Shown here one piece after another: positions 12,328-53,408 of a stretch of 64,000 nt of DNA. The position numbers were made by a program, and so were the translations under genes. The first letter of the stretch is position 1. Each line of letters opens with the position of its first letter. Under the pieces are notes generated by a model. The model saw only the letters and a list, made by a program, of their open reading frames with translations. It was not told where the DNA came from and ran no database searches. The DNA lies in contig KZ538076.1 in assembly GCA_000934665.2 (NCBI GenBank), forward strand, positions 62,001-126,000, in the 5' to 3' direction. The stretch is from Catajapyx aquilonaris (Eukaryota).

Positions 12328-14512
12328 GGACATGGGTTAACTCAGTCAGTATGTAAAAGTTGCGCCGTTGGATTTTGCTCAAACTTGGTCAGTTGATAAA
12401 GCTTGACCCCAGGGTCAATTTCTCTGAAGGACGAAGACAATCTACTGGGCCGTTTGGCTGCTAGAGGCGCTCAAAGTTCGATTTTCAATGTTGTCCAATC
12501 TTGGTGAAATTGACACACAATGTAGAGTGTGATGAGCTGAGTCAAATGCACTATGGGACAATTTTCTCTGACAAACCCTTTGGTCGTTATAGTTAGTTGC
12601 AGAGCTGCATAGCTTTACAGCAATATAAGTTGATCTACAATAGCCTCGACGTAAAAGTGTATCGCATCAGGCTACATGAAAAATAATGGTCCTTATTGGG
12701 TACCCTGATAGTCAATGAATACATACACATGAACCATGGAGCCCAACATATTTTACTGCAAGTCACACAGTGCTCAATTATTCAAAAATACATGGCAGGT
12801 CCAGAAAAATTACATAATGACATATAAATGAAATGATGAAAAGATGAGATACTGAAAGGGACTTGCCATTCAGCTTAGTGAAGGTGCTCCTCTGCCACTT
12901 CATCTGGCTCGAATTCCACTCCGACTAGTCCACTTTGCTCGACTTTAATGTCATTGGTTTCCTCAACCTGCGGCACTTCACTGACCACTTCTGGTAGTTC
13001 ACGATTGGCTGCATCTCTCATCACTTGGAGCAATCTGGACGATGGAGTTGGAATCTTCAATTGATGTCTGGCGTGGCCCAGGTACCACAATACGCTGGCT
13101 ACATGTGTGCAGCATCCCAACGTCCTCGCACCAGATTTGCACTGGCAGTACCAGCCGTGGACTAACTCTTTGTCATCATCATCCGGGTCAGAATCCTCTT
13201 GCTCGACATAGGCAATCCACGTTGTACTTGGTGGAATTTCTATATAGAACTGCCTGTGCCATTTTCAATGCTTATTGTCCCTCGTCTATTCAAGTGACTG
13301 GTGCCAATGAAGAATTAGGCCACAGGATGCTTGAGATTGCACAATCTCCTAATGTTGTCCAGCAGAGAGTTTTGACAAAGGGATGGACCTCAAAGACACG
13401 AGAATGGAAGATGATGGAGGATGATGGAGGAAGATGAGAGTTGGAGGTTCCCTGTTTTAACGGAAGAGTATCTGCATGATTTCACAATAGGAATTTACCA
13501 ATTGAAGCTAGTCAAGTCATATGTTCATGACAAAATGCACTATGAGATACAAATTCTTAAGGAGCCAGGACTTCTCAAAGCAAGAATATATTCTCGCTAT
13601 AGAAATTCCACCAAGTACAACTTGTGGATTGCCTATGTCGAGCAAGAGGATTCTGACCTGGAAGACGATGACAAGTTAGTCCACGGCTGGTACTGCCAGT
13701 GCAAATCTGGTGTTGCGATGCTGCGCACATGTAGCCAGCGTATTGTGGTACCTGGGCCACGCCAGACATCAATTGAAGATTCCAACTCCATCGTCCAGAT
13801 TGCTCCAAGTGATGAGAGATGCAGCCAATCGTGAACTACCAGAAGTGGTCATTGAAGTGCCGCAGGTTGAGGAAACCAATGACATTGAAGTCGAGCAAAG
13901 TGGACTAGTCGGAGTGGAATTCGAGCCAGATGAAGTGGCAGAGGAGCATCTTTACTAAGCTGAATGGCAAAGCCCCTTTCAGTATCTCATCTTTTCATCA
14001 TTTCATTTTTATTTCATGTAATTTTTCTGGACCTGCCATGTATTTTTGAATAATTGAACACTGTGATTGCAGTAAAATATGTTGGGCTCCATGGTTCATG
14101 TGTATGTATTCATTGACTATCAGGGTACCCAATAAGGACCATTATTTTTCATGTAGCCTGATGCGATACACTTTTACGTCGAGGCTATTGTAGATCAATT
14201 TATATTGCTGTAAACCTATACACTGTAGTACAGCTCTGCAACTATTGTAACTATTAACGACCAAATGGTTTGTCAGAGAAAATTGTCCCATAGCGCATTT
14301 GACTCAGCTCATTGAACTCTACAATGTGTGTCAATTTCACCAAGATTGGACAACATTGAAAATCGAACTTGGAGAGCATCTAGTGGCTAAACGGCCCAGT
14401 AGATTCTCTTCGTCCTCTCGAGAAATTGACCCTAGGGTCAAGCTTTATCAACTGACCAAGTTTGAGCAAAATCCAATGGCGTAACTTTTACATAAGGAGT
14501 TAATCCATGTCC
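12328..14512. mobile_element. 2.2-kb foldback DNA transposon derivative with ~915-bp inverted arms and no TSD
   Basis: AAA|GGACATGG...CCATGTCC|TTT. Arms 12328-13244 and 13598-14512 are near-identical reverse complements around a 353-bp unique spacer. Confidence 0.9.
13245..13958 (+). pseudogene. Frameshifted C-terminal remnant of a SWIM-zinc-finger protein, probably the element's transposase
   Basis: Joined frames read RTACAIFNAY...FPVLTEEYLHDFTIGIYQLKL...SRYRNSTKYNLWIAY...HGWYCQCKSG(ARTLG)CCxHVASVLWYLG, giving a CxC...CxH SWIM pattern. It is disrupted by a short duplication near 13420 and an ~8-nt deletion near 13710; the deleted bases survive in the left arm. Confidence 0.7.
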
Positions 14513-14978: not shown

Positions 14979-15439
14979 TTAGGCTCACCACCAAGTTTGG
15001 CAGGAAAATTCATGAGCACCCTGTACAGTGTACATAAGTGTCATCAGGTAATTGTTACATCTCAGATGTTTTAAATTAATTGATTCTAAGGCATTCATAT
15101 TTTTGGGGGAGTCTGTGTTTTTGGCAGTGATGCATAGTAAATATTTTGTCCCAATTTGTTCACCACTGTTAACATTCTCTTACGTGGATAAGGATATGAG
15201 TTAAAATAAAATATGCCTTTCATGCAGTGGGTTCTCAAATATACAAAGTTTAATTTCCTAAAATTGTGCATCTTGAACCTTTATCATCATAATGATAATT
15301 ATGGAACTTTTTGGCCAATGGTATACTCTAATGGTGGTGCAGCTTTGACACCACATGTAGCTCATCTTCAACTCGTCCTGTGTGCTCAATGTCAGCAACA
15401 AAGCTATTACAGTAAAACCTCTCGAGAGTGGACCCTGTA

Positions 15440-16051
15440 CTATCGGGTTCAAATACTTTTGGCCGCTTTATCCTAGTCTTGAAGCAACCCTTCACACACA
15501 CCTCCTTAAAGGGAGACTCCACTCAAAATGCAAGTTTGGGCTCTAAAAATCGGGCAAAAAATCCTGATTCCGAAGGTGCAATCGGTTTTTTTCTACGTGG
15601 AACAGAAAAGCCAGGACGAGGGGTTAAAGACTCAGAATTTGCGTCGTCTGCTAATGAGCTGCCCCGCCAGCCCAGTCCGCCACCACCATGAGCGCCGCCA
15701 CCGGGCACTAGGCGAAAGTGATTTAGTGCTGAAAGTCGGGTCGGGTCAAGAGGTGGCGGGATGAACCTGTGGGACGGACCAAAGATGGCGCAAGAATATC
15801 CCAATTTCTGCCAATCCCGGGGGAAGCGCTGCTGTTTTGCGGCAGATTCGAATTGCCTAACTTTGACGGCTCGCCCTGGCCTTACCGTTCGTCTCTCAGA
15901 AAAACTGCTTATACACTCGGAATCAGGATTTTTTGCCCGATTTTTAGAGCCCAACTTGCATTTTGAGTGGAGTGTCCCTTTAACGTGGGGTCTGCGCGAA
16001 GGGTTGCTTCAAGACCAGGATAAAGTGGCCAAAAGTATTTGAACCCGATAG
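15440..16051. mobile_element. TA-flanked palindromic MITE hosting a nested insertion
   Basis: TA|CTATCGGGTTCAAATACTTTTGGCC...GGCCAAAAGTATTTGAACCCGATAG|TA, with arms of about 60 bp. Confidence 0.8.
15510..15979. mobile_element. Kolobok-like MITE (TTAA TSD, AGG...CCT termini), copy 1
   Basis: TTAA|AGGGAGACTCCACTCAAAATGCAAG...CTTGCATTTTGAGTGGAGTGTCCCT|TTAA. The same family occurs at 31108-31609. Confidence 0.85.
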
Positions 16052-16058
16052 TACATAT

Positions 16059-18118: not shown

Positions 18119-18217
18119 TCAGTTCAGGTCTCGATCTTCTAAGTAACGGTACTCAAAGGTAAAGCCATCCTTCTTCCTCTGGCCCCATTTCTCGAAATCA
18201 AAGAAAATGTATGTCCC
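18119..18217 (-). CDS. CNOT3: CNOT3/Not3 coding exon 13 (last), end of the NOT box
   Basis: [32 protein letters not shown]; tttgcAG acceptor; canonical NOT2/3/5-domain C-terminus. Confidence 0.97.
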
Positions 18218-18283
18218 CTGCAAAGGCAACATGGGTGCATTTAGAATCAACTCGACTTTACTCATCAGCAATGATCCACCTAC

Positions 18284-18493
18284 CTGCTCAAAATCCTCAT
18301 TTATGATCTTGGGTTCTTCATGCCTTTGGAACCACATCATGTATTTAGTATGAAACCTCCAACTCTGCTTCTTTAAGGCTCTTGCAGCCAGATACTGAGC
18401 TTTTGTTCCTTCCATGTAATAAAAAATAAAAAATAGTGTTTCCGTCGATAATCTCTGGAAGAATTCCACCGTGTCTGAGTGAGGTGGAGGTAC
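18284..18493 (-). CDS. CNOT3: CNOT3 coding exon 12, NOT box
   Basis: [70 protein letters not shown]; tttcAG acceptor and GTaggt donor. Confidence 0.97.
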
Positions 18494-21400
18494 CTGAAAT
18501 GGTTCATTCACAGGTATTAGTACAAGTACCACTGCAGGTCTTTATCTGTCACGACTTAAATAACAAATATGGCATGTGTTACTTTATAACTAGTCTTACA
18601 AAGATTCTCAAAACCTACTAGTGCAATATTTTATGTAGAGCTACTTATAACTAGGAGTTTCTTGCATTTGCTGCAAAAACAAATCACATTCTATCGTAAA
18701 TAAAAGGACTTTGCAAAGTAACTTCCAACGAGGCTACGACAGCAGCTTTCACAACAGTAGCTTTCACAACAGTGTGGGGTATGATTCGCAAATTGTGAAG
18801 TTACTGACACTGCAATTTACATATTTCCAAATGGTAATTTGCTAGTTTGTCCCTTCCTTTTATTCACGAAGGTAAATATACCCCAGTAATTGTAAAATCA
18901 GTTCTATCGAAAATGTCCAACAGAAGGACTTGCTTAGAAACTAGCCTTGACATCGCCTGAAAATAAGCATTACGAAAATGTTTGGCGAATGTGACAGGGT
19001 TCACCAACTTGCTCCTCTCTCTCTCTCGCTCTCTCAGGTGGCTCATGAAAACACAATCAGATTAAAAATTAACATGTTTGAGTTCATTTTGTTGTTTTGT
19101 GTCTCCTTATTCCACCTGGAACCTGCATCTGAAACAAGCTTTGCTTTAATATCAGTATTTTGTGTGAAACACAACACTAATTCCATAATTTAAATGTTCT
19201 CTTTTCTTGACCTTGCACTGGCATCATCAGAAGTGACTATGCTGAGGGGAGATGCTGCTCAAAACTTGATGTCCTGAAGATAAATTGTAATTCACACATA
19301 AAAACAGACTGATAAAACAAGAGCTCCTGAAGGATGGTGCTGAACTTGTGGCCCCAATGGCTTCACAGCTTGGGTTCAAATTTGTATTCCAGTATCCATG
19401 TCTATCCAAGGTATTCAAGCACTTACCCATGAAATCCTGGCTACTCCATTCGTCGATGCCAATTGACAGATGCCATACGTTGCCGTAACTTCATATTAAG
19501 CTGGGCACAGTGTACCACGGACAAAACTGTGGGCTTTCAGAGTGAAACTAGTGCCAACACTCAGCTATCTGATGTCTAAAACAGTGATACAATGCACACA
19601 CCCTTTCATCATGCTTTAAGCAAAGTACAAAGTGACAACATAAGTAATGTACATAGGGATGGAAGCAGGAAAAATTAACACCACTGAAGAAACCAACATA
19701 GGAGGATTTTCATGCATGGTGATTACAGTGACAAGTAACAGGGGAACAGAATGCTTCAACATGGAATATTGGCACCATCACTTGATTTCTTGCGCCAAAA
19801 TACTAATGTAATGTAATTACTAGAACAAAATGAGGGCTGGCACGGATTCCCCCCACCCCCCCCCCCCACCCCATGGAAACGAGGTAGCAAAGAAATGTGC
19901 CTGGTAAGAAATTGAGTGTCAACTGATAGTAATCACAGCAGAGAATGGATCTCTGTTTTTAATTTTGAACTCAATTCTTGGAGCTCATGGTACTGATTGC
20001 AACCTTATGAAGAAACTCAAAATCACATGATATACAGCCAGTATAACAATTTCTGAATTACCTATAACAGCAGCAACATAGAAAGTCAACAGCAGTCTAA
20101 CTTGGGACATGCCCTCTCAAGCAGCGAATTGGAATGAGTGCCAAATAAAGTGAAATTGTACACCTATCAATTGCAGAATACAGTAGCTACTTTGAATTTA
20201 CAAATGTCAATAAAAATCCATCAATTAATTACCATTGGTAGAAGTAAGAACAGACAATGTTAGTTCTTCTGGCACGATGAATGTATTTTTTCTTAGGGAC
20301 AGTTCCTAAAGAGGCAACCTTTTTTTAGGGGGGCTGGAGTAAATAGCTCTGGCCATCACAAGACATTGGAAAATCAACATGACAGAAGAAATTACACGAA
20401 CTTGGCCCTCCTTCCACCCGCCTTGCTCTGGGAAACTCAGTAGTACTGCCATGCATTGCAGGTCAAAAAATATATTTGAACTTCTGGGCAGTTCCGAGTT
20501 CCAGTTTCAAATTCAGACAATGCTATGTTGATTTTGTGATGTTATCTAATTTTCACTAAGCTTGCCCTTCAAGAAGGGTTGAAGCGAGAGGGCATTCACA
20601 CACAATCGGGTTATACTGCTGCAGACTATAACAACAAAAAAACATAACAATTATATAAAATAACAGCAACTATACCACTACTGATGATGNGGGAATTGTC
20701 CAGGTGTGGTGTATGAAAAATGAGCTTTCTGTTAAATTTTGGCACCTTCAGGAATACCAACTTGATGCAGGAGGGTCTGTGAACATTAAAACTGACACGG
20801 ATAAACACTTAAATAATTCTACTTGGGCAGACTTAAAAGTTGTCACCCAGTGTACCAGATACCAATTTGGAAATCATGTTGATTCCTTATGATGAAATGA
20901 AAAAGTCTGATTTTCTTGAAACCAGTTTCAGTCTGCAGATGATATCACACGAGAAAAAAAAGTCCTGTGACCATCTTCACCAGTCTTGTTTTGAAAGTTA
21001 TAAATAATTGAAAATTTGGAACTCTGGGTATGTGACAACAAAACTACCTTACCCTAATCTACCTAGCATTCCCAGTGTGAAAGTTGGGCCAGCCAAAGTG
21101 TACTTAGTTTGAGTCTTCATTAGTTTCGTTTAAAACCCACTCTTCTAGAACCTGGTAGTGGTGAAAATTCAATTCCGTCTCGATTTGTCTTGATAATTTT
21201 TTACAGGCAAGGGCTTACGAAGCCCAGGAGTATTTCAAAATACTCGTGGGCAGCTGCATGTTGCACACTGGGCATACCCTGGTGATGCCAGATCTGTGAC
21301 TGACATTACCATACATAGTGATTTGTTCCGGAAGTTTGTCTTCCAAGATGACTTCAGAGGAGATGCAATTGTTAATACAGCCCTGCTGCAGCAAAAAGAC

Positions 21401-23061
21401 AGGCTCCCCTACTCTTAAGTTTGGTTTGGTCAACTCCTTGGCTTACAGTTAGTGCATTTCACTAATGGAGGTCTCATGGTTTTATGCACTGCACTAAAAT
21501 GTTGCTGCTGGCTCTGAATAGTGCCCTATGGATTTAAAATTTTTGACAGGGTAACAATAACTGAAGTGCTGAGCTTTTCTACTGAGATATGAGCAATGGA
21601 TCAAAATGCATATTACAGGACGTTCTTGGTCTACGAACGGGGATACGTTGCTAAGAATGTCTGCAATTTGGATTTGTACATAGCTCAGATCCCTTATGAA
21701 CAGCACAAGTACAGTAATAATAGCTGCTAGAATAAATGTGGTGCGCCAACAAACCTTTTACGTCATGCAGGTTTGTATACATGCTTGGAAGAAAATCGTT
21801 CCCGAATTAATTAATTATACCCTTAAAATGCAAAATTTTTTGTCAAGGTCTCTCCTTCAATTCATTTTATATAAAAACTTATATTTCAACTCTTTCAACT
21901 TATGGCCGTCCCTGCAGGGCGGCCGCTATTAGGGTTTTCTGCCTAGTGGCAAATCCGCCNNNAAAACCCCCCCCCCCCCCCCCCCCGGACTAAATTTTTG
22001 AAATTTTTTATTGGGTTATTTCGCCTGTATTTTCTATAATTTTAGCCTATTTGAAAAATATTTATTGCAACATGCGGCCGCCCCTAGGCAATTGCCTATT
22101 CTGCCAATGGCAATCCGGTACTGCTTCCAGTCGCGTAGTTATTTATTATTAATTTTTCGTTTACTTATTTTCGTATGCCTAAATTTGCCGCCCCTTGAAA
22201 TCTGCCGCCCTGGGCAACTGCGTAGGTTGCCTTGCCGTAAATCCAGCGCTGACTACCGGGCATACCTTTCCGAAGGTTATGCTCTTATGATGCTGAAATA
22301 TGCTTATGATGCTGAAAAGCCATCCGTGACGTAGTGCCAAGATGCCACACGCAAATCTTTGGTGGCATCGCAATCTGACAATTTATTGAATAACCATCAC
22401 GCTCCTGTACGCCACTTTATGTGCATTTATTTTTCTATTTTTTTTGCATATAGCGATGGGTGCAGAACTCGGTGTTGGTTATATGGTACAAAAGGTTGAA
22501 AAATGAGAATATGATAGCACAACCTTGCACCCCATTGAGTTATAATAAGAGATCAGCTTTCGTGGATGATAATTTCGCGTAATTTCTACCAAAATTAATG
22601 TGGCCCAGGCAGGAAAATTTATTTGACTGATTTGGCATGACATACTCTCTCCGACACTATCATGAACGTTCATAAATAAGTAAGAAAGCAGTTCTTATTC
22701 CAAAACTTTCGTAAGGGTGGGGACGGGGCGGGAAACGATGGCAATAGCCGTATTCAACGATACCATCTAACTGAAAAGTTTAAGCTAAATTGCTTAGCCG
22801 AGTGCAATAGCAGCTTCTTAGTAGTCTTCCCTAGAATGCAAGGCGATTGTGGTTTCCGATAACTGTTGCGAAGGTAACAGCACTGAGTTGCCTGTAATCC
22901 GTGATTCCGTAATAAATTTCATCTGGAAGGCTAATTATTCTCGAAACATGTTGGCATAGCGTTATGGAATAGCAGTTATTGGTCGCGGTATTGGTCGCAG
23001 TTACTAATAGCTCTACGAGACCTCCCTCAAATAGCAAATAACACACAATTGCCCACTACTA

Positions 23062-23347
23062 CTAAATTCACGGAGGAAGACCGGATAGGCCCTGCCCACT
23101 GAAAAATCACGCTTGGAAATACGTTCGACATTTTTGTAGTATTAGGGACAGCTTATGAAGAAATACCATTGGAGTAGAGGTTCACCGCGTTTCCCGGCTT
23201 GGCACACTCCTGCTGAGTTGCCCACTGGGGTAGGAAAGGTAAAGGGACCCCTGCCATAAACCATCGCTCCTTCCACATTTGGCAGCAGTGCTGGCCATGA
23301 GGAGTGGTAGGGGGTGGAGCCTATCCGGTCTTCCTCCGTGAATTTAG
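23062..23347. mobile_element. TA-flanked MITE
   Basis: TA|CTAAATTCACGGAGGAAGACCGGATAGGC...GCCTATCCGGTCTTCCTCCGTGAATTTAG|TA. Confidence 0.75.
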
Positions 23348-24678
23348 TACTAGCGCCAACTGGCGGAATAGTTTGCGGCTGGCCAGCCCCATTGATCACT
23401 CACGTCGTGCTCTAACCTCCAAACAATGCTTTTTACATTCAATTGTGGAATTCATGGTAGCAAATCCTCTCAGAAGACAATTAAAGATAAATGAAATTAT
23501 TTTTGAACGCCACCACTCCAGGCATGGGCCTCTATCCTTCCCTTCTGACCTCCCAGCCTGGTACCTCGCTATTCTCGATTTTAAAACTGAACTCTAGTGC
23601 AAAGCACACTTCCTTATGGGTGTATAGGTACAGGCACGTAAAGAAAAGTCACAGCCCATTCAGCTAAAAAAAACTTTTTCTGGATGCCCATTTAAATGGG
23701 CATTTGGTCTCAGGAAGAAAAGATAATTCCCAGTTCTCTACAGCAACAAAGTTTGTCACAGACACATCTTTTCGTATTTCCTAATGCACATTCCTTGTGA
23801 ATCTCAGGACATTCGCTGCATTGATGAAAATCGCACTCTAAATATGAGGAAAAAATAAAACTTATCAGATGAGCGCCTAGCTTCAGCAGTGGCATCCGCC
23901 ATTTTATCCGCGATTTAATTTTCGCGGCCCAAGTCAGATATTCGACACTAGGTGGCTACACCTATTGAGGCCCGATTGTAATCATTGGATACCAACAGAT
24001 TACAGTTCTGTGGGCATCACTAGTTGGTGCCAAAAAAAACTTTTCCAGATGTCTAATATATTGGACGCCGGGTCTCAGGAGGATATAGTAATTATGTTGA
24101 ACTTTGTGTTGGTCAACAAATGCAGAAAAGTGTAGGGATAATTATAATGATCCTTATGGGGAGCCTTGGGGCCCCGTTTCTAAGTACAGAATGCCGTAAG
24201 TAGGTTATTCGTAAACCAGAGAAGTTCCTGTACCGGAGTAGGGCTGCGAGTAAATTAGGCCAGTCCCCAACGTATATAAATTCATTGTTCTGCAGCATTA
24301 CATACAAGTAAAATTTTACACAACCAGAAACATAAATAAATAATTTAAATTATATTCATTATACAAAGTGTACTTCACACTGTGCAGTCAATACTGGAGC
24401 CACTGTCCTATCCAATTGAGGCCATTGCGAGGGAATGGATTCACTGTGATGCCCAGAAGCTGGTCACAATGTCATTGAAGAAATTAGTCTAGGCAGGAAG
24501 ATTCAAGTTGCCACACGCCACAATTTAACACATTTTCTTGCTTCATCTACATTTTACATTACTTCTTTGGTTGTTTTTTTTTTTTGCGTGTGTTAAAAGA
24601 TAAGTTCATTCCAGATATTTGGCATGTCCAGCAAGAAGCAATCACTGCATTCAATCTCACTAGTTGCAATTTACAAAA

Positions 24679-24731
24679 TCAGTATTTTCTAAAGCAAGAC
24701 CAGGAGTTCCCACGGTAATTAGGTGAAGCAT
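24679..24731 (-). CDS. Candidate terminal coding exon after the repeat exon: (H)ASPNYRGNSWSCFRKY*
   Basis: Strong acceptor with branch point (ctgac tttcttttacAG). Its phase 1 matches the GTAAGT donor at 24849, across a 118-nt intron. Confidence 0.5.
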
Positions 24732-24849
24732 CTGTAAAAGAAAGTCAGTGCCACAGGATCACAGGAGGACTTCCCATACCTACACAATGTGGTCAAAACA
24801 ACCAGCCCCATAAGACAATGTAAAATAAACAAGATACGCTCACACTTAC

Positions 24850-25759
24850 GGTTTGATCCCAAATTATCCTTTTTATCATCATCCTTATCCTTCTTTTCCT
24901 TTGGATCCATATACTTCTTTTCCTTTGGATCCATATACCTCTTTTCCTTTGGATCCATATACCTCCTTTCCTTTGGATCCATATACCTCCTTTCCTTTGG
25001 ATCCACCCACTGGTCCCCGGTGGAGGAGGAGGGGTGCCTCCTTTCCTTTGGATCCATCCACTTCCCTCCGCTGGAGGAGGGAGGATACCTCCTTTCCTTT
25101 GGATCCACCCACACGTCCGCGCTGGAGATGGGGGAGTACCTCCTTTCCTTTGGATTCATCCACTGGTCCCCGCTGGAGATGGGGTGGTACCTCCTTTCCC
25201 TAGGTTCCATATACCTCTTTTCATTAGGATCCATACACTTGTTTTCCTTAGGATCCACACATTTCTTTTCCTTAGGATCCACACATTTCTTTTCCTTAGG
25301 ATCCACATACTTCTTTTCCTTGGGATCCATGTACTTCTTTTCTGTTGGATATATGTACTTCTTTTGTGTTGGATATATGTACTTCTTTTGTGTTGGATAT
25401 ATATGCTTCTTTTCTGTTGGATATATGTACTTCTTTTCCTTAGAATCCACATACTTCTTTTCCTTCGGGTCCACATACTTCTTTTCCTTAGGATCCACAT
25501 CCTTCTTTTCCTTAACCTTAGGATCAATATCCTTCTTTTCCTTAAGAATCTTAGGATCCATATCCTTCTTTTCCTTGGGATCCACACCCTTCTTTTCCTT
25601 GGGATCCACACCCTTCTTTTCCTGAGGATCCACACCCTTCTTTTCCTGAGGATCATTATCCTTCTTTTCCTGAGGATCATTATCCTTCTTTTCCTTATCA
25701 TCCCCATTATCCACATTTTCCTCTTCTTCATCCTCATCATCATCCTTAGTTGCTAAAAT
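24850..25759 (-). CDS. Candidate exon encoding an acidic stretch and about 30 tandem DPKE(KK/RR)Y(V/M) repeats, within a CNOT3 intron
   Basis: Stop-free frame. Acceptor cactcAG at 25760 (an alternative ttttAG at 25753) and a perfect AAC C|GTAAGT donor. Length variants of the repeat units are multiples of 3. Confidence 0.55.
24885..25700. repeat. Minisatellite of 24-bp units with several ~50-bp expanded units
   Basis: Plus-strand consensus about CTTCTTTTCCTTAGGATCCACATA. GGATCC recurs in most units, and the units form sub-blocks of related variants. Confidence 0.95.
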
Positions 25760-25970
25760 CTGAGTGAAGGTACAACATAGGTGAAGACAGGATGAAGGAC
25801 AGCAACAAGTGTGAAAGAAACAGCAATAGGTGAGACCAGATACCAACACACCACAACCTTGCAGCCTAACCTCCCCAAAATTTTCTTCATAAAAGGACAC
25901 CTTCCTGGGTCAGTTTTCTCATGTAGCATGGCCATTTTTAGTGGAGTTTGCTCCCAGTGATATTCAATTA

Positions 25971-26495
25971 GGAAAGAGTAGGCCTTACTGGCGTGCGGGA
26001 GGCGGCAGGGGGAGTGGTGACTGGGGGCAGCTCTGCCGTCAGATGTGAGAGGACCGTAACTCAATATCCACTTCCGTTGCGGCGAGAAAAGAAAGCAAGT
26101 GTTACTGAAATCATCCAAGAGGTGGCATTGGGGGAAGGGGGAAAAAGGAACGGCATCCCAACTCCACCTGTTGGGTGCTTTTGGTACCACTGCTTTTTTT
26201 CTCACCGCAAGGGGAAGTGGACATGAGTTACGGTCCTCTCACATCTGACGGCAGAGCTTGGCTGTGTCGCTAAGGCAAGTATGCAAGGATTGATTTTTTG
26301 GATTTTGGAAGGCGTATGCTGTACCAACCTAACCTTCCTTCCTTCCTTCCTTCCTTGCGGACACAGACCTATCTTCAGTCATACAGACCTATCTTCAGAG
26401 GATACATGCCGATCCTTTATCCTTGCCTTTGCGACACAGCCCGCTGCCCCAACTGACTACTACCCTCCCGCACGCCAGTAAGGCCAACTCTATCC
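25971..26495. mobile_element. MITE with GG...CC termini and an 8-bp TSD (Merlin- or Mutator-like)
   Basis: TTCAATTA|GGAAAGAGTAGGCCTTACTGGCGTGCGGGAGG...CCTCCCGCACGCCAGTAAGGCCAACTCTATCC|TTCAATTA. It has additional internal inverted repeats (GCTCTGCCGTCAGATGTGAGAGGACCGTAACTCA). Confidence 0.8.
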
Positions 26496-27193
26496 TTCAA
26501 TTATAAAGGAAAACTAATTTATCCCTTATCAACATGGGGTTTCAAAAAATCTGGGTTTAAGTCACAATTATTGAATCGATGCTGCTTAAAATCACCACCA
26601 AGTTTCAAGAATCTTCAATGGCTGACATTTTCTAGCAACCACATATAAAACACTTTTTCAACACCCTACAGCCAAAGCTTTAATATGCAATGACACAATT
26701 GCATGCACAATGAAACCTTGTTGATTCCAAATTCAGGGAACCAATAAATGTCAGTTTGAATTGAATTTCTAGTTTATGAATAAAAAGTTATTGCAGGTTC
26801 TAATTGTTTTGTGGCCATAATATGAGAAACAAAAATTGCTAATTTATTGATGCAACTTTTAAAGGTGGATTTTCACAATACCCGAGTCATTACTACTATC
26901 TCGTATTTTTTCACAAGCATAGCTAACATTACTAGGTATAACCTCCACAAAAAAATTTCAAGTTATATGGCAAAAGATACCCTGGATGGTGTCCTTTCTT
27001 TTTAGAAGCAGGTCTACAGTGACAGTCCTGGTTTCCCCTTCCACTACTAGTTTGAACTAGTCAGTAGTGGCCAGCAATGGGCTTATCCCAGAAATGATCC
27101 CTCACAGGATGGATTGTGGTGTACCATCATAATGTTTAGTGACAATTGTTCTCAAATGAAGTGAAACTCAGTTTTTAGAAGTCTGTTTCTCAG

Positions 27194-27594
27194 TAGAGAA
27201 AATCCGGGCTTGAAAGTTAAAATTTGAACATTTTTGCATTGCAAATAGCCACAAAAGGTACTAGGAACCTGCTCGAGTTATTATTATAATTTTTATGACA
27301 ATGGTCTGTGATGGATAAATTTTTCGGTAGTATACTGTTCACAAATAATAATCCCAATAAAATTACATGTACGATTTCCCATAGTAATACCCAATTTGGG
27401 TCATTGTCACATTGTGCAACCAGCATTGAGCAGGCACTGATTTTGTGAAGAATATGCATCACAAAATATTGATTATCATCTACCATTGTCATAGAATTTA
27501 AATGTAAATTTCCAGAACATTACTAATGCCTTCTGAGGCCATTATAAATGCAAAAAATTGCAAATTCACAACTTTCAAGCCCAGATTTTCTCTA
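27194..27594. mobile_element. MITE
   Basis: TAGAGAAAATCCGGGCTTGAAAG...CTTTCAAGCCCAGATTTTCTCTA terminal inverted repeat. Confidence 0.6.
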
Positions 27595-28341
27595 GCTAAA
27601 CACATTTAAAAACTTTCACTTTTTCATCTAATATAATTAGAAACTTGCACTAAAAATTATCATGGTACAGCACAAACTCAATCCTAAGAGGGCTTTCCTT
27701 ATAAAGCATTAAACCAGAGTTGACCCTACCACTAAGAGTGGGTGAGAAACCAGCCCATACACTCGGTTTTCAAAAAAAAAAAATGATAAGGTCCTCCCTA
27801 TCCCCTTCCTGGTAGACCTGTTGGTGCTCATTCCCAAATATTAAAACTCTGATGCCAAATACTTATCATGGTTGGCTGAAGTCTAGACAATCTACATGGG
27901 ATGGAGTCAACATATAAATGGATTGCAACACATAAGGTACATATGGCATGCATTCTTTGTTATGATAAAGCCTTGTTCCAATTGTTAGTGTCTCTCAACC
28001 TCACATGTTAATAGCACTGGAAACACTGTTAGTATGCTAATGCCAGTTCCAACATTACAAAAAAAAAGCCTCACAAATGGTATTTCAGTGGAATGTAGCA
28101 TTCAAGTGCCAGATTTTTTTTCACAATTGCACAAATGGAACAGACACAGCAACAGTTTACATAGTGTGCCTGTCACAAGCATCACAAAGTCACTGTTGCA
28201 AGGAAAAGACTGCCCATTTTAATGTTAAATGACAAATTGCAGTAAAAGTAGGGGGAGGAAAGAGCTGCTCCAGAAAATAATAGAATCCATGTCGGTATTC
28301 AGCACTACTGCACAGATAGAAGATAGCACAAATTAGACAAA

Positions 28342-28904
28342 GGACATGGCACTGGGGTTCTTTATGGAAAAGTTCAGGCAGATGGATTTGGATGAAACTT
28401 GGTCAGGTGATAAACCTTGACCTTAGGGTCAATTGTTCTGAAGGACGCAGAAAATCTACCATGCCGTTTGGCTGCGAGAGGCGCTCAAAGTAAGAATTTC
28501 AAGTGGTTCCTATCGGACTCATTTTCACAAATTTTGTTGAGTTTCCAGAGCCGAGTCAAATGAGCCATGTGGCAATTTTATATGACAAACCATTTGGCAG
28601 TTATTGTTGTCGCACCTATAATCCATATGAATTCGATTGTGCTTCTAGCGGTCAAAATATTTGTCACAGAAAATTGCCACATGGCTCATTCGACTCAGCT
28701 CATGAAACTCTAAAACATACGTAAAAATGAGCCTGATAGGAACCACTTGAAATTCCGACTTTGAGCACCTCTAGTGGTCAAACGGAGTAGTAGATTTTCT
28801 TCGTCCTTCAGAACAATTGACCCTAAGGCCAAGGTCTATCACCTGACCAAGTTTCATCCAAATCCATCTGGCTCAACTTTTCCCATAAGGACCCCACCAT
28901 GTCC
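28342..28904. mobile_element. Short foldback copy of the 12328-14512 family
   Basis: AAA|GGACATGG...CCATGTCC|TTT with arms of about 260 bp homologous to the large element's termini (AAACTTGGTCAG..GATAAA.CTTGACC..AGGGTCAATT..CTGAAGGACG). Confidence 0.85.
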
Positions 28905-28912
28905 TTTATTAC

Positions 28913-29667
28913 TAGAGAACAGATTTCTAGGTTTTTCCTTATTTTTTATTCTGCACGCAGAACACAGGAACCAAAGTATCTATCCGTTTCATAACACAAG
29001 GACCTCAAATATGGTAGTTTTATAGAACCTGAAATTGCCAATTTTGGGCATTGGAACCTAAATGGCCTATTCACGCCTATTTCCACCTTTTTGACGCCGT
29101 TCTGTAGGATTTTCGATGATTTTCCATTCAAGGCATCCTTCCCGCTTCAATCTGCAAAGAAGCTGTAGGCATGCCAGATGAACTTGCAGTATCAGACACT
29201 GTACTTTTCAAGTATGATCCAGAAACTTCGTGTGACGTTAAAAGGTCATTTTCAGTGTATAAAGACATAGTGTCAGTCAGGTATCACCTACTAACTCAAG
29301 AAAATACACGAAAATATGATGCAACTGCTAGTTTGCTAACAGGAGGCGGAGTGGCACTGCGGTAAAGTATGCGCCCAAGGATGTTAAGGTCTCGATCCCA
29401 GCCCGGGGTTACCCCTTCATCTCGTGCAGAGTTCGGGGTCAACTCTGGCTTCGTCTCAGGTGGTATCTCCATTAAGACAAACCACACCGGGGAGTTCACA
29501 AAATGACCACAGCAACGACATTGCACTGCACCTTGCACATCCTCTACTGTCATCCTGACCTTGGGCCTGGGTGCTTCAAACAAAAGTTACAATGTCCAAA
29601 ATAACGGTACAATAAAGGTCTGTGCGATATACCCCAAGAGCCAAGAGGGGTGAAAGCACTACCCAGG

Positions 29668-29721
<54 letters not shown>

Positions 29722-29863
29722 GCCTGTAATATTATATAGGAACAAAAATAAATGAAGACCTGCTTGATTTTTACCGCCTATTTAAGAGCCTATTCTGACT
29801 GTCTTCAGGACCTAAATGCCTACCTTTTGGGTTTTTTTTAAGAACCTAAAAATCTGTTCTTTA
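28913..29863 (+). mobile_element. hAT-like internally deleted element with a transposase C-terminal remnant
   Basis: TIRs TAGAGAACAGATTT / AAATCTGTTCTTTA. The peptide FKYDPETSCDVKRSFSVYKDIV...LTQEN at 29171-29325 resembles the hAT dimerisation motif (S.ERxFS). Confidence 0.65.
29345..29720 (+). mobile_element. tRNA-derived SINE with an (ATT)n tail, inserted in the hAT-like element
   Basis: A-box-like GTGGCACTGCGG, B-box-like GGTCTCGATCCC, and a 3' tail of about 17 ATT units at 29668-29720. Confidence 0.65.
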
Positions 29864-30820
29864 GTCATTACATACATGGGAATAAAAAATGAACTAATTT
29901 TTCTGCTGAAGCGATGAGAAGCTACATGCTTGTCCAGTTTCCACTTACATAAGTGAAAAAATACTTGAAATTCATTATCTGGCAAAAACACAATGGCAGC
30001 CATTGTAAGTGGAAAAAACTGCCATCACTTCCACTTAAATAAGTGGAAAATGGAGGTTTTCACTTTTTAAGTGGAAATTAGGGCAGTTTTAAGTTCAAAA
30101 CGTGTCTTTTCCATCCGTTATAAGTAGAAAGAAATGCTCCGTTTTACATTAATCACAGTGTAGAGAAACACAAAGTTTGTCTGGCCTGAATTCAGCTTGG
30201 GCAATCAGCATTAATTTGTACAAAACTTTCTCAAGAAGGGTTACAAAAGCAAATAGTATTTTATAAAGTTTTTTTTCTTTCTTCCGACTGGGATGCTTTT
30301 TTGACATTCCACTTCTTCGGTCTGTACGCATGGAAAGAGCTGACATTCATAATGTTAACTGGCAGAAATCACAATTAGTGAGCACACTTTCCCACAATAA
30401 AGGTTGCAATCTACTCTCATGCATGGTTTTGACAACAGCAAACAAATCACAAGCAATACATGCAGTGGCAGCAAGCATACAATTATACTGGTACTGTGCG
30501 TGTCTACTCATCTATACTTGTGTTAATTCAAAAGTCATGAGTACATACCACATTCTTACCCAGAGCCAAATATATCAGGTGCTCAGGTGTAAATCAGGGT
30601 AACTGACTTTATACCTTTTCAGGATAAGGAAGTTTACACCACTGACTTCTACTATGCACTGGATTGCTGATTGCTGTGATCGAGACTACTATTCTTGCTC
30701 CAGAGCCACCTTGGGGCTCAAATTGGCTTTAGAGCTCATGTATCTAGGGTAGCTCAAAATCAGGCGAAAGCAGCTCTTTCTACATGTGACGTGATTATGT
30801 CCCTTCAGCCACCCAGTATA

Positions 30821-31032
30821 CAGGGTGCCTCAACTTTTTTGTCAGAACAATTATCGGAAATATTGCACTAAGCTGCTGATTTTTTTAGCAGTGACTTGCA
30901 ACCAGTGATGCTTCCCTGGCTTTATCAGTTGAGGGATGTGCCAGGAATGTTGAGGCATATTCTGGCTACATAGCTAGAAGATACATAGGCTTTTCCGATA
31001 ACTGTTTGGACAAAAAAAGTTTAGACACTCTG
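30821..31032. mobile_element. Tc1/mariner-type MITE
   Basis: TA|CAGGGTGCCTCAACTTTTTTGTC...GACAAAAAAAGTTTAGACACTCTG|TA. Confidence 0.7.
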
Positions 31033-31107
31033 TAGGCTACTGGGCACAAGTCAGTAGTTGACACAATCACACACAGGCAATAGAAATTACAAACTTCAGC
31101 ACCTTAA

Positions 31108-31609
31108 AGGGACACTCCACTCAAAATACAAGTTGGGCTCTAAAAATCGGGCAAAAAATCCTGACTCCGAGGGTATAAGCAGTTTTTCTGAGAGACGAAC
31201 GGTAAGGCCAGGGCGAAAGCTGGAAGTGTGTCGGTCGAAAACCGCGCTCAAACGCCCGGCGCAGGTGGCAACGCCACCCTCTGAGGGTGACGTTGGATAG
31301 TAGCGCCGCCCTTCCCAACGGCGACTTGGATAAGTTGCCTGCGGGTATGGGGATCCGTGGGGATCTGGTTGTGTCCGAAGCCAACTTCCCCTAGTGCCCG
31401 TTGGGAAGGGCGGCGCTCTATCCAACGTCGCCTAACTTGGCCAGGTGGCCAGGCGGAGCCACTCTCGAACAGACCTGGAATTTCTTCCGACTTTCGTCTC
31501 TTCCCCTGACATTACCGTTCGTCTCAGAGATAAACGGATGGTATCACCGGAATCAGGATTTTTTGCCTGATTTTTACAGATCAACTTGTATTTTGAGTGG
31601 AGTGTCCCT
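31108..31609. mobile_element. Kolobok-like MITE, copy 2
   Basis: TTAA|AGGGACACTCCACTCAAAATACAAG...CTTGTATTTTGAGTGGAGTGTCCCT|TTAA. Confidence 0.85.
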
Positions 31610-32529
31610 TTAATAGTTCTTCCACCATATTGGCTATGTCCAGTGAATTTCACATCTTTTACATGGGACAAAATTAATATTTTGAATTTGGCAGTTACCA
31701 GACTTCATACCTTATCACCGAAATTATCATGTTGAACTCAACATATTTTTGAAGGTTACTCAAAAAGTTTTATAATGTGATCCATTGATGGCATGTAAAA
31801 CTTTTGAGCAGATAGTGTAACTGATAAACAAGAAGCAGCTATAAGATTTCCTTAAGATTCCAGTTCTTACACTGAACTACTACGGACACCCCCAGCACTC
31901 ATCTGACCTGAATCTCGGCAATTTTGACATTTTCCCACAAACGCAGCCTTGCAAAGCTCACTTCCAGGATCCTTGGCAACAAAATCACCCAGAGATGCAT
32001 ATCCTAGCAAGTTAACCACTGTAATAATACAGATAGTCCGTTCCCCAATGGCTGCAGCAGGTTGGCCCTTTGCAAACACTTTGAGGCATAGTAATTATGA
32101 AGACTATCATAATTTAGGATGATTATGATTGAGGAAGAGGAGAGGTTCTCACTACTAGTTTTTCTGCAGTTCTAATGAGATTGGTGAACCATGTATGGAC
32201 CACTGTAAAAGTTCTTTGACTATGCTTCAAAAATATGTAGGTACAAAAAATAAATGTTCTACCTTTCCAATGACCTTTACAGACTTTTGAATCAATGCAA
32301 ATATATTTATGAGTCTTTACTAACTGTACTTGCAATAATCACTTTCCCTTCCTCTGAAATCGCACAAGAATTCCGGAGCCATCTCCATGTATTGTCCAGT
32401 GTTGAAATGTCATATTTCCAATATATTCCTTTTCCATAAGAATGAATCTTTACAGTACTCACAATCTTATTCATTTGTGGATTAACCACCTGTGATGATC
32501 TAAAAAGGCACTACAGTAAATTCAATATA

Positions 32530-32704
32530 CAGTCGACTCTGGGTATAAGAGACTTCAAGGGACCACGGAAATCAGTATCCTATAACCGAGGTTTCCTATA
32601 TCTAAATACACATGACATATATGAAAGTATGCCAAGACCAGCCTTTCAAGTTGGCTATAACTGAGGTTGCTTATAGCTCAGGCTCTTATGTCTGGAGTCG
32701 ACTG
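32530..32704. mobile_element. pogo/Tigger-like MITE
   Basis: TA|CAGTCGACTCTGG...CTGGAGTCGACTG|TA. Confidence 0.7.
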
Positions 32705-33241
32705 TATTAATGTAACTAAGTACTCTCTTGTTTGCTCAAGAAAAAAGATTAGGTTCAATCGAAATAAAGGGCCTGCAGTGGCAAGTCATAAAATATCCTT
32801 TCAAATCTTTTTTCACACATGAGCAGACAAGGGTACAAGCACAGGATCTTGAAACAAAGGCACATGCATTAACTGGGCCATTCAACTAGATGTAAGCATT
32901 TAAAAAATGGAAAACCAAGATGTCCAAGTCACTGCGATTTCAAGCCCCAGGCAATAGGAGCCATTGTGAGAAACACAAATTCAATTAACTCTGTCGGTGG
33001 TGAAATACCATATTCTACAGCAAAATTCACGTTTATAGTCAGAAGGAACAATGGAGGTGACCTTTTCATCACATATTTTTGAATCAAAGGATAGCATTAT
33101 TAAGTTATTAAACAGATGTATAAATATTTCCACTTCCTAGATATCCTGGTTCTCCAAAAAAATACTCCATCCTGAACAGTTGCAATGCCCCAAAGAAACA
33201 CAAGAATGTTGGTCAAAGAACACGTTAGAATCCAGCAATTA

Positions 33242-33412
33242 CAGTGAAACCTCAACATAAAGCTCTCGCACAATGCTGTCCTGCTTTTAACACCCTATTT
33301 TTCCAGTCCCTTGAATAGCCCCATATGGAGCATTTCCTGCATAAAATGAATTCCTGCTCATAATGCTACTTTGAGTCTGTCCCCTGAAAAGCATTATATT
33401 GAGGTTTTACTG
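33242..33412. mobile_element. pogo/Tigger-like MITE
   Basis: TA|CAGTGAAACCTCAACATAA...TTATATTGAGGTTTTACTG|TA. Confidence 0.7.
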
Positions 33413-34548
33413 TACATGAAAGAACACTTCATCTACTGTTCTACTGCTGAAATAGTATCGATCAGTAAGCAGTTCTCTAAAATAAAGGCCATGTACACTA
33501 TGTGTGCAAACAATGTCTCCTGACAGTCACCAACTGAAACAGGTGTTATGACCATCTACCATGTAGTAGGCATAACACCATATCTAAAAAGTTTCGGAAC
33601 TCTTCACAGAACCTTCACATATGTCATTAAAAGATCAGGAAAAACATGGTCCCAATTGCATGCAGGGAACCATTTGGCCAATTTCAAGATTTGACTCCTC
33701 ACTCTGTTGGCTCTAAAACACAGTAAAACACAGTAAAACCCAAATATGACAACCCTCATAATTCCAAAATACAGGTACTTCCTCCCATGCAATATTGTAT
33801 TCCTGTCTTCTCCTCATCCACTTTTATCATGCTTGGATTATCATCAATATATTATCTGACTATGGGCATTCACCCTGCTATAAGGGTCTCTCCCTCCCAC
33901 CCCCTCAACCATTAGTCGACACAATTGTGAAAGAATTCTCCAGTTTCAGATGGGCTTCACCTACCCACCATGTTTGGTTGTAATCCAACTGACAGTTGAA
34001 TAGGGAGAAAAAATGGTTTACCGTGCTTAATGCACACAAGTGGAGCAGTGAATCATGTCAACATTTTCACTAATTTTGGTGGTCATCACTAAATTGACCC
34101 ATACTGTTTTCCTACAGAAAGTCGCATCAGCAGATTTCAATAAAGCTGTTTGCATGAGTGTTGCATGTCCTAAGCGTCGTTATTGCAATGTGCTCATGTG
34201 ACTTTTTCTGTACAATGGCAGCATACTCTGCTTCTGATGTCACATGCCAGATTACCATCTGATGCACCTCACATATCTCCACCACTAACAGCACATTTAA
34301 TCTGACTAGTCAAACATTTTTACACAAATCTGCCCTGATTGCAACCAAATCTGGAGAGTGAGTGCAAAGTAACCCCACCACGGACATCTGCAGTGTCCAG
34401 CATCAATTTATTCACAATGTATCCACATGGTTGACTGGTCTCCCTTCAGTTGAATTGCCCTTGTACAGAATTTCTAACCTTATGCAGTACATTCCATTTA
34501 CAATAACGTACTGCATATATGAACAAATAAAACTTGTAAAGTACATAC

Positions 34549-34781
34549 CTGAGGATAATAGGGCGGTATGGGACATGGGTTTCGAGGCATGTATGGCCTC
34601 ATTTTCTCATTATCAGATGGATGAGGCAAGTGGTAATAAGCAGCTTCTAGCATCTGGAACTGATACTGATGTTCCTTCTGCAATGGCACAGGGCCAAGGG
34701 GTGCCACGCCTAGTAATGGAGGGATGTGAGCTTCCGATGGCTGCTGCTGCTGGTTCTTGTTAGAGGTTTCAAACAACAGAA
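34549..34781 (-). CDS. CNOT3: CNOT3 coding exon 11
   Basis: ...SEAHIPPLLGVAPLGPVPLQKEHQYQFQMLEAAYYHLPHPSDNEKMRPYMPRNPCPIPPYYPQ, the conserved segment before the NOT box; ttccAG acceptor and GTatgt donor. Confidence 0.92.
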
Positions 34782-34838
34782 CTGGAAGAAATGTTGCATC
34801 AGCACCTGAGGTGGTCACATAGAAGAATGAGTCTTTAC

Positions 34839-34923
34839 CTCTACTTGGATCATTCGTGACCATATCCAAGGAGGCTCGCTGTAATGGATCCTGTGCCATG
34901 GCTTTCAGGGACAATGCCTCCAT
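34839..34923 (-). CDS. CNOT3: CNOT3 coding exon 10
   Basis: MEALSLKAMAQDPLQRASLDMVTNDPSR, with the SLKxMA motif seen in CNOT3; tttttcAG acceptor and GTaaag donor. Confidence 0.85.
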
Positions 34924-36243
34924 CTGAAAAAGCAGAACTTGGTCACCTGCACTTTCACACAATTCCACATTTACAGTTAACAAGTGTACTGGATTCAAGA
35001 AAAAGAGTAAACTGCATGCAGGTAAATGGATCTGAATACATCAAATAGAGTACAACAATTATCCTGATTTAAAGGGATAATTACAACGTACAGCCTTATA
35101 ACCTGTACAAATACTATTAACATTCAATCATATTGAGCTGGCTCAATCAGAAATACTATCTACAGCCTTGGTGAATCGGATTTTGAATGTATAATTTCTC
35201 AGTGTTCCAAAGTGCCACATGACATGGCCAGATCTCAAATTTTTAAAAACATATAAAGGGTGGGTTACGAAGACGTAACATACACCTGCGTCACTTCCTT
35301 ATGCAACATGGCGATATCATTGTCTTGGTTCATTTTTACATTTGAGGCACAGTCATACAGTGTGTTTTAAAATTTAGCTCACATCCATATTTACATATAT
35401 GTCACATCCACCCACAACTCCTGTTGGCCCTGAAGGTGGGAGTACAAGGGAGAGAACCAAGGAGCTAGGCATGAGGGATGTGAGTTTGGTCCTTCTGAGA
35501 AACAAAAATTTGGCAGGCACAAAGTATCAATTGGGAATAGGAGTCCACAACATTTCAATTATGAGCTAAATTCTGAAACACATGGTATGATGATCAATAC
35601 CACTGAATTGATTAAAATTGTCAGTAACAGTGCAAACAACACTGTCACAAAGGAAGAATAAAAGCCACAGGGAGGGGTATATGGTTCTTCAGTGTCTTCA
35701 CAGATCTGAAACCAGTGAGAAACTCACTGAATTTCCATATATTGTCTCAAACAGTCAAGAATGGCAAGTGGAAAACTTGGAAGTAACTGGAAGCTATGCT
35801 TAATAAACAAGTGTTACTAGACAAGTGTACAGTACTTTCTCCTTCCAGTTTGCATAAATCTCCTAATGATCGTCTTAAAATAAAACACAAATAAATTTGA
35901 CTGTTTTTGATTTATAAATGGGCATTTAAAAAATCTGCAGTGGTAATTTCAGCTAAAAAAAATAACATCCATGTTGTCCTCCCAATCTCTACTTTCAGCT
36001 AATTGCATGAAACGTGTATAATATTTCTAAGAAATAGTAGGGTAAATTACCTATAACCTGTTCTATGTAAGTCTTCTAAGTTGACGCAAAAAGACAAATA
36101 TCTCAGTTCTCCACCTACTGTAGGTTAGCCCTGCTTTCACAAAAAAATTAATTTCCAGCTTTGGCCCATGCACAAATTTTTTACAGCTGGATCCCAAGGG
36201 TTAGGTAGGAAAAACTATTGTGGATTATAAATTACATTCTTAA

Positions 36244-40193: not shown

Positions 40194-40267
40194 CTATCAA
40201 AACATATTGCCATGAGTATTCTGCATTACACTGGTACTTAGTCCACTACTTCAATTAACTCCCTCAC

Positions 40268-40447
40268 CTGCCCAACATCTATAGACATGTTGTCAAGCAT
40301 CCTCATCAATGTCTCCAACTTTCGAATGTGATAACGATGTTTCTCGAGCCATCCTTTAAGATCTTCTATCCTATCCTGCTTGTCCTTATCCAGCTTCTTC
40401 TTTTTGCCAGCTTGCAGTGATTCAATCTCACATTCCATCTGATCAAC
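40268..40447 (-). CDS. CNOT3: CNOT3 coding exon 4
   Basis: [60 protein letters not shown]. Confidence 0.95.
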
Positions 40448-40598
40448 CTGTGACAAACAAGTCGGCAGTAAATACATGTTTCTTGCATGTACAATAGGTT
40501 GTACAATATGATTGCGGCATTGTCAGGAATCATTCATAGTTAGACACCACCAAATTGGATTTCAAGGATTCACCCTGAAAAATAATCAAAACACGTAC

Positions 40599-40754
40599 CT
40601 GCAAATTCAACCCATCAATAGACGTTACCAGCCACTGGTTCATCTCTTCCCTCTCTTTCTGAGCAGGGTCCATTTTCTGTGCAGCCCCTAATCCTTCTTT
40701 GGAGTAAGCTTTGGTTTTAGTCTCCCTTTCTACAATCTTGAATCTCTCCATTTG
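40599..40754 (-). CDS. CNOT3: CNOT3 coding exon 3
   Basis: [52 protein letters not shown]. Confidence 0.97.
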
Positions 40755-40827
40755 CTGTAAACAACACAGAACATTTGTGTTACACCAGGTTCTAAGACTA
40801 CATACCATCAACAACTTCCAAACTCAC

Positions 40828-41060
40828 GGTTTCGATCAGCTTTCTATTGTCCAACAAGGTACTCTTGTCTTTAATCTCGCCCGATGCGATCCATGATTTG
40901 ATCTGGTCACGTAACCTCTGAAGCTTCTTAATTTCCTTCTTGAGATCAGCTTCATACTTCTCTTTCTGGTTGCTATTTGTAGCATTGTGAACTTTCTGCC
41001 AAATGTCTTCAAAGGTTTCAACACCTTCCGAAACCTTTTTCAGGCAACGGTCTATTTCAC
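40828..41060 (-). CDS. CNOT3: CNOT3 coding exon 2
   Basis: (G)[77 protein letters not shown], translated by hand; ctgcAG acceptor and GTgagt donor. Confidence 0.97.
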
Positions 41061-53384: not shown

Positions 53385-53408
53385 TAAGTCCCATCAATGC
53401 ACCATGTA

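Follow-up and report, generated by a model that had tools for sequence, protein, structure and literature searches.

A 16,055-nt intron of a CNOT3-type gene in Catajapyx aquilonaris encloses a two-exon unit that is transcribed on the CNOT3 strand and from which an intron of 118 nt is removed. The unit lies in a window of 64,000 nt (NCBI GenBank assembly GCA_000934665.2, contig KZ538076.1, positions 62,001 to 126,000 of the forward strand), the numbering of which, counted from its first letter, is used throughout. Its first exon is largely made up of a tandem array of DPKEKKYV-type repeats. We tentatively favour, at somewhat under even chances, the reading that the unit serves CNOT3 as an alternative pair of terminal exons, which would give rise to a NOT-box-less protein with a repeat tail, in which a minisatellite happens to be open and in phase. 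Transcription, the strand, removal of the 118-nt intron and the normal CNOT3 junction are seen in RNA, whereas splicing at the acceptor 25760, a connection to CNOT3, the position of the 3' end, translation and any function are inferred. The parts of the unit are as follows.

25760..25810, minus strand: pyrimidine-rich tract ending in CAG, candidate 3' splice site, 73% pyrimidine over 51 nt
25759..24850, minus strand: repeat exon, 910 nt, 303 codons plus 1 base, stop-free
25759-25679, minus strand: acidic head of the repeat exon, 27 aa
24890..25678, minus strand: tandem array of GATCCTAAGGAAAAGAAGTATATG-type units, from TRF and a count of a unit pattern (repeat families D1 and D2)
25207-25004, minus strand: four 51-nt units of the array, from reading of the sequence
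24849..24732, minus strand: small intron, 118 nt, GT..AG, removed in RNA
24286..24731, minus strand: terminal exon at its minimum extent, from a 506-nt contig with no gap and no further joint

The RNA evidence comes from X1, the one public run listed for 24300-26000, where no run recorded as RNA was listed. X1, of unrecorded kind, comprises 31.8 million letters in 85,611 contigs and contains 0.58 of the words of that stretch. Its contigs were placed on 23000-35100, where the listing covers three joints, 8 of the 81 pieces and 6 of the 18 loose ends, and such contigs can show presence, not absence. One contig of 506 nt runs over 24286-24731 and then over 24850-24909, the joint 24731/24850 dropping exactly 118 nt. 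The dropped stretch has CT..AC ends on the plus strand and hence GT..AG ends on the minus strand, that of CNOT3, and in this one contig the joint is supported by 60 nt on its shorter side. Splicing from 24850 to 24731 had been predicted from the letters in a first-pass annotation of this stretch, which set it beforehand as a test, and the prediction is borne out. Two more stretches of the repeat exon, 24987-25271 and 25408-25593, are covered by X1 contigs, and there, as on 24850-24909, no difference to the locus is seen. The contig ends at 25271, 25408 and 25593 are exactly where the 31-mers of the array lose uniqueness, and the fragmentation is therefore due to assembly of the repeat. A form retaining the 118-nt intron is not among the X1 contigs listed. 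X1 behaves as a transcriptome, e.g. a CNOT3 contig is present without the 57-nt intron 34782-34838 and without the 16-kb intron. Joint 24731/24850, taken together with the normal splice from YYPQ to the NOT box in the same run, therefore shows the unit to be a real processed transcript.

The sequence of the unit agrees with this processing. The first-pass annotation had described a 910-nt stop-free exon with an acidic tract, an acceptor at 25760 and a GTAAGT donor at 24849, and all of these were recovered, as were the 118-nt intron with a branch-like CTGAC and the open reading frame (ORF) of the terminal exon. The letters before the repeat exon are ...cactcag|, with AG at 25761-25760, and the first base of the exon, 25759, also starts a codon (phase 0). 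Its donor reads C|GTAAGT, with GT at 24849-24848, and in the 118-nt intron CTGAC stands 13-17 nt ahead of the AG. The terminal exon opens with (C)AT GCT... and encodes HASPNYRGNSWSCFRKY, 17 codons that close with TGA at 24681-24679, i.e. 51 nt past the last junction and in the last exon, after which ~390 nt are untranslated. As to a poly(A)-like site near 24350, also proposed at first pass, AATATA is present at 24356-24351, the X1 contig continues past it to 24286 and ends there without a tail (contigs cannot show RNA ends), and neither AATAAA nor ATTAAA was seen in the last 100 nt of the terminal exon, read by eye.

The array consists of 28 DPKEKKYV-type units, of which 21 have 8 aa, four have 17, one has 11, one has 10 and the last is partial, and a short K/D tail closes the repeat exon after it. 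All length variants (33, 30 and 51 nt) are multiples of 3. TRF describes the array by a period of 24 (25.9 copies, 71-91% matches) and a period of 51 (4.2 copies, 81%). The unit pattern has 21 matches vs 0.01 expected, every one of them within 24890-25678. With 22 copies in register and head-to-tail units of tens of bases, the array is a minisatellite. The possibility that it is an interspersed satellite or part of a transposon was considered and rejected, the array occurring a single time in the window with flanks that are unique there and with X1 contigs that show no differences.

The host gene occupies the minus strand of the window, as seen from Pfam matches to both of its ends, and the features that bear on the unit are listed here.

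40241-41118, minus strand: three exons with the Not3 N-terminal domain PF04065, E 1.5e-37, 1.4e-17 and 7.9e-15
34549..34781, minus strand: CNOT3 exon ("exon 11"), covered over 34546-34781 by an X1 contig of 2140 nt; would-be donor for a splice to the repeat exon
18494..34548, minus strand: CNOT3 intron enclosing the repeat unit, 16,055 nt, with the unit in its middle
18493, minus strand: start of the NOT-box exon, where the letters at a loose end of the CNOT3 contig are placed
18122-18541, minus strand: NOT box PF04153 (NOT2_3_5_C), E 1.9e-33

Exon 11 ends in ...NPCPIPPYYPQ|gtatgt at 34549 in phase 0, and its last 45 aa align to the human NOT-module CNOT3 chain 4c0d_C over residues 20-64 (E 1.4e-14). 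The normal CNOT3 junction is seen in RNA, where the 2140-nt X1 contig passes from 34546 into the NOT-box exon 16 kb off; the reverse complement of its loose end at 34546, CCTCCACCTCAC..., was placed at 18493, and the NOT box is joined in this contig to the upstream CNOT3 exons. The canonical acceptor tract at 18494 is about half pyrimidine, counted by eye.

Several properties speak for the candidate acceptor at 25760 being a real one. The 50 nt before 25759 are 74% pyrimidine, a content equalled by 0.36% of the 50-nt windows in the 16,055-nt intron, and the tract ranks in the top 0.2-0.4% of that intron. An ad hoc acceptor filter lets through 4 sites in the whole 16,055 nt, 25760 among them; of the remaining three, two lie in the neighbouring transposon. 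Branch-like motifs TTCAC and TTCAT are found 22 and 33 nt upstream of it. The repeat exon behind it is 68% purine and contains 19 AAGAAG motifs; purine-rich motifs of the AAGAAG type act as splicing enhancers. The long frame is open from the first base of the exon, and its first in-frame ATG is at codon 66 (25561), preceded by 10 out-of-frame ATGs, nine of which open the +1 frame, starting at 25743. An open frame that lacks an early ATG and stops in the last exon is what an internal coding exon joined to a phase-0 upstream exon would show, and it sits uneasily with an mRNA that starts by itself; a stop so placed is known to escape nonsense-mediated decay. The unit is on the same strand as CNOT3 and inside its intron, and the frame would be continuous with the host exon, the donor at 34549 and the acceptor at 25759 both being of phase 0. 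A signal-peptide reading of MKKILGRLGCKVVVCWYLV... (25890 onward) was also tried and rejected; its frame ends at TAG 25755-25753, and no in-phase splice was found that would preserve it.

Under the favoured reading, the 16-kb intron would be transcribed and would present a strong acceptor at 25760, 8.8 kb past the YYPQ donor, followed by a purine-rich exon with many AAGAAG motifs. This acceptor may at times outcompete the weaker canonical acceptor at 18494, whereupon the 118-nt intron would next be removed and the RNA would end near 24286. With a phase-matched acceptor and an open repeat frame, such an mRNA is proposed to be translated by default. The product would keep the Not3 N-terminal domain, the linker and the first part of the solved NOT-module region, and its NOT box would be swapped for a ~320-aa tail, acidic and then composed of K-E-Y octamers. 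The NOT box of CNOT3 is the region that pairs with CNOT2, and an isoform without it should therefore fail to pair with CNOT2. The likeliest effect would be a lowered output of full-length CNOT3, or else a free N-terminal fragment. It is doubtful, and rather improbable on balance, that the isoform is a substantial one, in which the Not3 domain and the start of the CNOT1-contacting region are kept and are followed by ~320 aa of acidic head and recently expanded Tyr-Asp-Pro-Lys-Glu-Lys-Lys array. To our knowledge no NOT-box-less CNOT3 isoform of such a kind has been described, and a literature search found neither such an isoform (including by intronic polyadenylation) nor this locus.

Like isoforms produced by intronic polyadenylation or alternative last exons, the unit lies in an intron on the strand of its host, has a strong acceptor and a terminal exon of its own, and places its stop in the last exon with a phase continuous with the upstream host exon. 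Unlike them, the module comprises two exons, the first of which is 910 nt long and is built from a minisatellite.

Several points weigh against the assignment to CNOT3 and have to be considered together with the rival explanations. Alternative terminal splicing of CNOT3 was one of the two interpretations offered by the first-pass annotation, and it is plausible in view of the phase-0 match, the strong acceptor, the last-exon stop and the lack of an ATG for 66 codons; the joint 34549->25759 on which it depends is not among the three joints listed in X1, nor is 25858->25759, the joint of the other interpretation. The only CNOT3 contig seen in X1 (2140 nt) goes on into the NOT-box exon, and X1 is a single run that possibly stems from the same individual as the assembly. 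A phase match such as that of 34549 and 25759 has a chance of 1 in 3, the acceptor filter was designed after the 25760 site had been seen, and an internal exon of 910 nt is unusual in animals. The letters diagnostic of the CNOT3 link, immediately upstream of 25759, would be ...CCCTATTATCCTCAG, and those of the nested gene proposed at first pass would be ...GGCTGCAAG (25858). The size of the repeat exon could instead be that of a first exon, as long first exons are common and long internal ones rare, and the unit would then be a self-started nested transcript that begins at the repeat exon or a little way upstream of it, with one splice and an end near 24286, either non-coding or a young lineage-restricted orphan. 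Such a transcript is on the unlikely side, though a serious candidate. It accords with the X1 joints listed, none of which leads to an upstream exon, and with a coding constraint that is not significant, four of six frames being nearly open and relatives not having been found. Against it, a pyrimidine tract in the top 0.4% is found with a CAG exactly at the exon start, no recognisable core promoter motif was seen by eye in 25760-25860, and units on the strand of the intron that contains them belong more often to isoforms of the host than to genes of their own. Scanning ribosomes would first meet ATGATGATG at 25743, which is in the +1 frame and not in that of DPKEKKYV, and this +1-frame ORF would stop ~300 nt before the last junction. 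With nested genes and lncRNAs (long non-coding RNAs) in introns, the unit shares a spliced transcript body of its own that is entirely enclosed by the intron of a host; it differs in being on the strand of its host, most nested genes described being antisense, and in having neither relatives that could be found nor an early start codon in its long frame. The 5' edge of X1 cover, worked out from bin sums and predicted 31-mer breaks, falls between ~25759 and 25806 according to the depth assumed and is not decisive. Contig depths (4.8-7.4 on the unit, 2.1-3.3 on other intron pieces, 20.6 on CNOT3) cannot rank the parts and were not used.

The other interpretation offered at first pass, an independent nested gene of ~346 aa, would start further upstream, with a first exon from ATG 25935 to 25858 and a 98-nt intron, after which it would continue through both exons of the unit and the 118-nt intron between them. 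Two further features are of importance to it.

25858..25935, minus strand: proposed first exon of the nested gene (hypothesis), ATG at 25935, 26 codons, AAG|GTTGTG donor, context CTAAAAATGG
25971..26495, no strand assigned: foldback (MITE-like, miniature inverted-repeat transposable element) transposon, 525 nt, with inverted arms of 33 nt (94%) and 65 nt (83%)

Both the ATG at 25935 and the AAG|gttgtg at 25858/25857 are present as had been described. With A at -3 and G at +4 the start codon stands in a good context, and the 26 codons end in phase 0 at AAG|GT. The same strong acceptor would be used, and the DPKEKKYV frame would gain a start codon. However, the donor GTTGTG is off consensus at +3 to +6 and fits on the exon side only, an in-phase GT is expected by chance in a GT-rich stretch, and the joint 25759/25858 is not among the three X1 joints listed, where contigs cannot show absence. 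Between ATG 25935 and the foldback element upstream of it there are 35 nt, and a promoter would therefore have to sit in or beyond the element. Altogether such a gene is very unlikely. The depth of bin 25828-26231 (8.12) is what a single ~97%-alike contig on 26035-26181 (depth 22.3) yields, and therefore nothing seems to lie on 25828-26034, the proposed exon 25858-25935 included; neither this nor the lack of X1 cover in bins 26232-27039 was given weight. A last explanation is that the unit is a by-product of the processing of the long CNOT3 intron, in which an inner intron is removed from the pre-mRNA, or cryptic splicing noise, without a stable mRNA or product. Its position on the same strand inside the intron, the finding of the joint in one contig of one run, and the presence in X1 of other intronic pieces speak for this. 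It is nonetheless very unlikely, as there is a perfect match of the locus over 24286-25593 to the spliced contig and the contigs next to it, the assembled form is the spliced one with no contig retaining the 118 nt among those listed, and the unit has a full layout of acceptor, donor, branch site and acceptor.

Whether the open frame is coding is a separate matter from whether the unit is spliced. The numbers of stops over the 910 nt are 0, 2 and 30 in the minus-strand frames and 12, 2 and 3 in the plus-strand frames, and two antisense frames have long open stretches, one of 299 codons and one of 295. Four of the six frames of the consensus unit GATCCTAAGGAAAAGAAGTATATG contain no stop. A young array of such a 24-nt unit is open by construction, and the stop-free frame is therefore no evidence of a protein. 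The first-pass annotation had reported about 30 frame-keeping DPKE repeats; the 28 units and their lengths in multiples of 3 agree with this description, and the coding argument drawn from it was overstated, since the unit is stop-free in four frames. The length variants represent ~three independent events, all of which would be multiples of three by chance in ~1 in 27 cases, and they preserve every frame alike.

Among the 21 units of 24 nt there are 23 distinct variants, which in the DPKEKKYM frame comprise 7 synonymous changes, 16 replacements and 0 stops; 12 of the 23 are transitions. The synonymous excess has P values of 0.019, 0.075 and 0.187 for transition weights (kappa) of 1, 2 and 4, and the probability of no stop in the DPKEKKY frame given 23 distinct variants is 0.14-0.38. 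Replacements are no more conservative than random (mean BLOSUM62 0.06 vs an expected -0.11 to 0.08), and the four 51-nt units differ mostly through replacements. There is thus no significant signal of protein constraint among the units (P 0.02-0.19), and the DPKEKKYV frame is favoured at best weakly. The +1 frame at 25743-25153 on the minus strand, which starts with ATGATGATG, encodes 195 aa of extremely basic RKRR(V/I)WIL repeats and ends at 25155-25153. AlphaFold2 run on the single sequence of the repeat protein gave a mean pLDDT of 48.7 and a pTM of 0.13 with no secondary structure, which is to be read only as no fold predicted. Known coding minisatellites, e.g. those of mucins and involucrin as generally described, likewise have head-to-tail units in multiples of 3, variants arranged blockwise and a charged product predicted to be unstructured, whereas the array described here has open antisense frames as well. 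Being a young minisatellite, the repeat tail owes its open frame to the unit sequence and not to demonstrated selection.

Database searches gave no matches to relatives of the repeat protein at similar or greater length. An exhaustive HMMER search returned 90 matches at E<=1e-3 among 1.84 billion representatives, the best at 1.8e-27, and the 7 of these 90 that were inspected are unrelated proteins with 8-residue repeats, e.g. VDTHESQC, YLDSQDVR and GLDPQQLR; judged by sequence, these octamer-repeat matches (7/90 inspected) appear convergent. The protein atlas held no usable match to the repeat protein, a metagenome pattern scan gave 0, and in a scan of related loci 595 stretches fit the peptide pattern with 0 confirmed. 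Rfam gave 0 matches on 20000-30000. The CNOT3 linker exon of the same gene, used as a control, was also without matches; the databases therefore seem to be without this organism or close kin, and the absence of relatives says little. The Pfam family OCRE (PF17780) reached 25.1 bits for the whole protein against a cut-off of 24.7, a score summed over the repeats with 0 stretches passing alone. Membership was rejected, the match being one of periodicity with no domain-level match above threshold. The repeat unit resembles OCRE in its 8-residue period and its Tyr-x-Asp-Pro motif, and differs in having one aromatic residue and a KEKK block per unit and in the absence of strands from the AlphaFold2 prediction.

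The surroundings of the unit are rich in repeats. The foldback element upstream of it is bounded by terminal inverted repeats of ~32 nt, which differ at two positions, and by a target duplication of 8 bp, TAATTGAA, that is intact at 26503-26496 and 25970-25963; a duplication of 8 bp is typical of hAT elements. The X1 contig placed on it at 26035-26181 is only ~97% alike and therefore comes from another, transcribed copy of the element. Two interspersed families, 15436-16055 / 31097-31613 and 12364-12594 / 28353-28896, are common to the CNOT3 intron and the region downstream of CNOT3, and X1 covers them heavily, the depth of its bins reaching 152 at 29464-29867. At 12350-14494 a large inverted duplication has arms of 240 nt (92%), 156 nt (98%) and 267 nt (97%), and both arms contain ORFs with a CxC...CxH motif (WYCQCKSGARTLGCCTHVASVLWYLGH) for which Pfam has no match; it has the appearance of a gene of transposon origin that was duplicated in head-to-head orientation. 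A near-perfect hairpin is located at 52706-53389, with 303-nt arms that are 98% complementary and 78 nt apart.

Two further observations concern the genes of the window. Within a seemingly single open exon of CNOT3, a 57-nt GT..AG intron at 34782-34838 (minus strand) is removed in the X1 contig; it consists of 19 stop-free codons, and its retention would insert 19 residues in frame. On the plus strand, convergent with the 3' end of CNOT3, 1689-4331 is an open frame of 881 codons without a Pfam family, for which the protein atlas gave weak leads only (best 0.86, clusters of calponin-homology and DUF4592 type); the frame probably represents a large exon of an adjacent gene.

The unit is transcribed and spliced and is yet ordinary in kind, as terminal exons within introns, nested transcripts and minisatellites that are expressed are each familiar from other genes. 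A stop-free frame over a tandem array carries little weight by itself, the antisense strand being just as open here. Should the unit prove to be a separate transcript, it would be a case of a minisatellite that supplies a long ready-made open frame within an intron, raw material for a new gene. If it is instead the alternative terminal exon pair of CNOT3 favoured here, the NOT-box-less isoform, were it a substantial one, would amount to a naturally occurring dominant or decoy version of a core deadenylase subunit, and part of the CNOT3 output would be made without the domain that builds the NOT module, which may provide the CCR4-NOT complex with a built-in means of tuning or antagonism.

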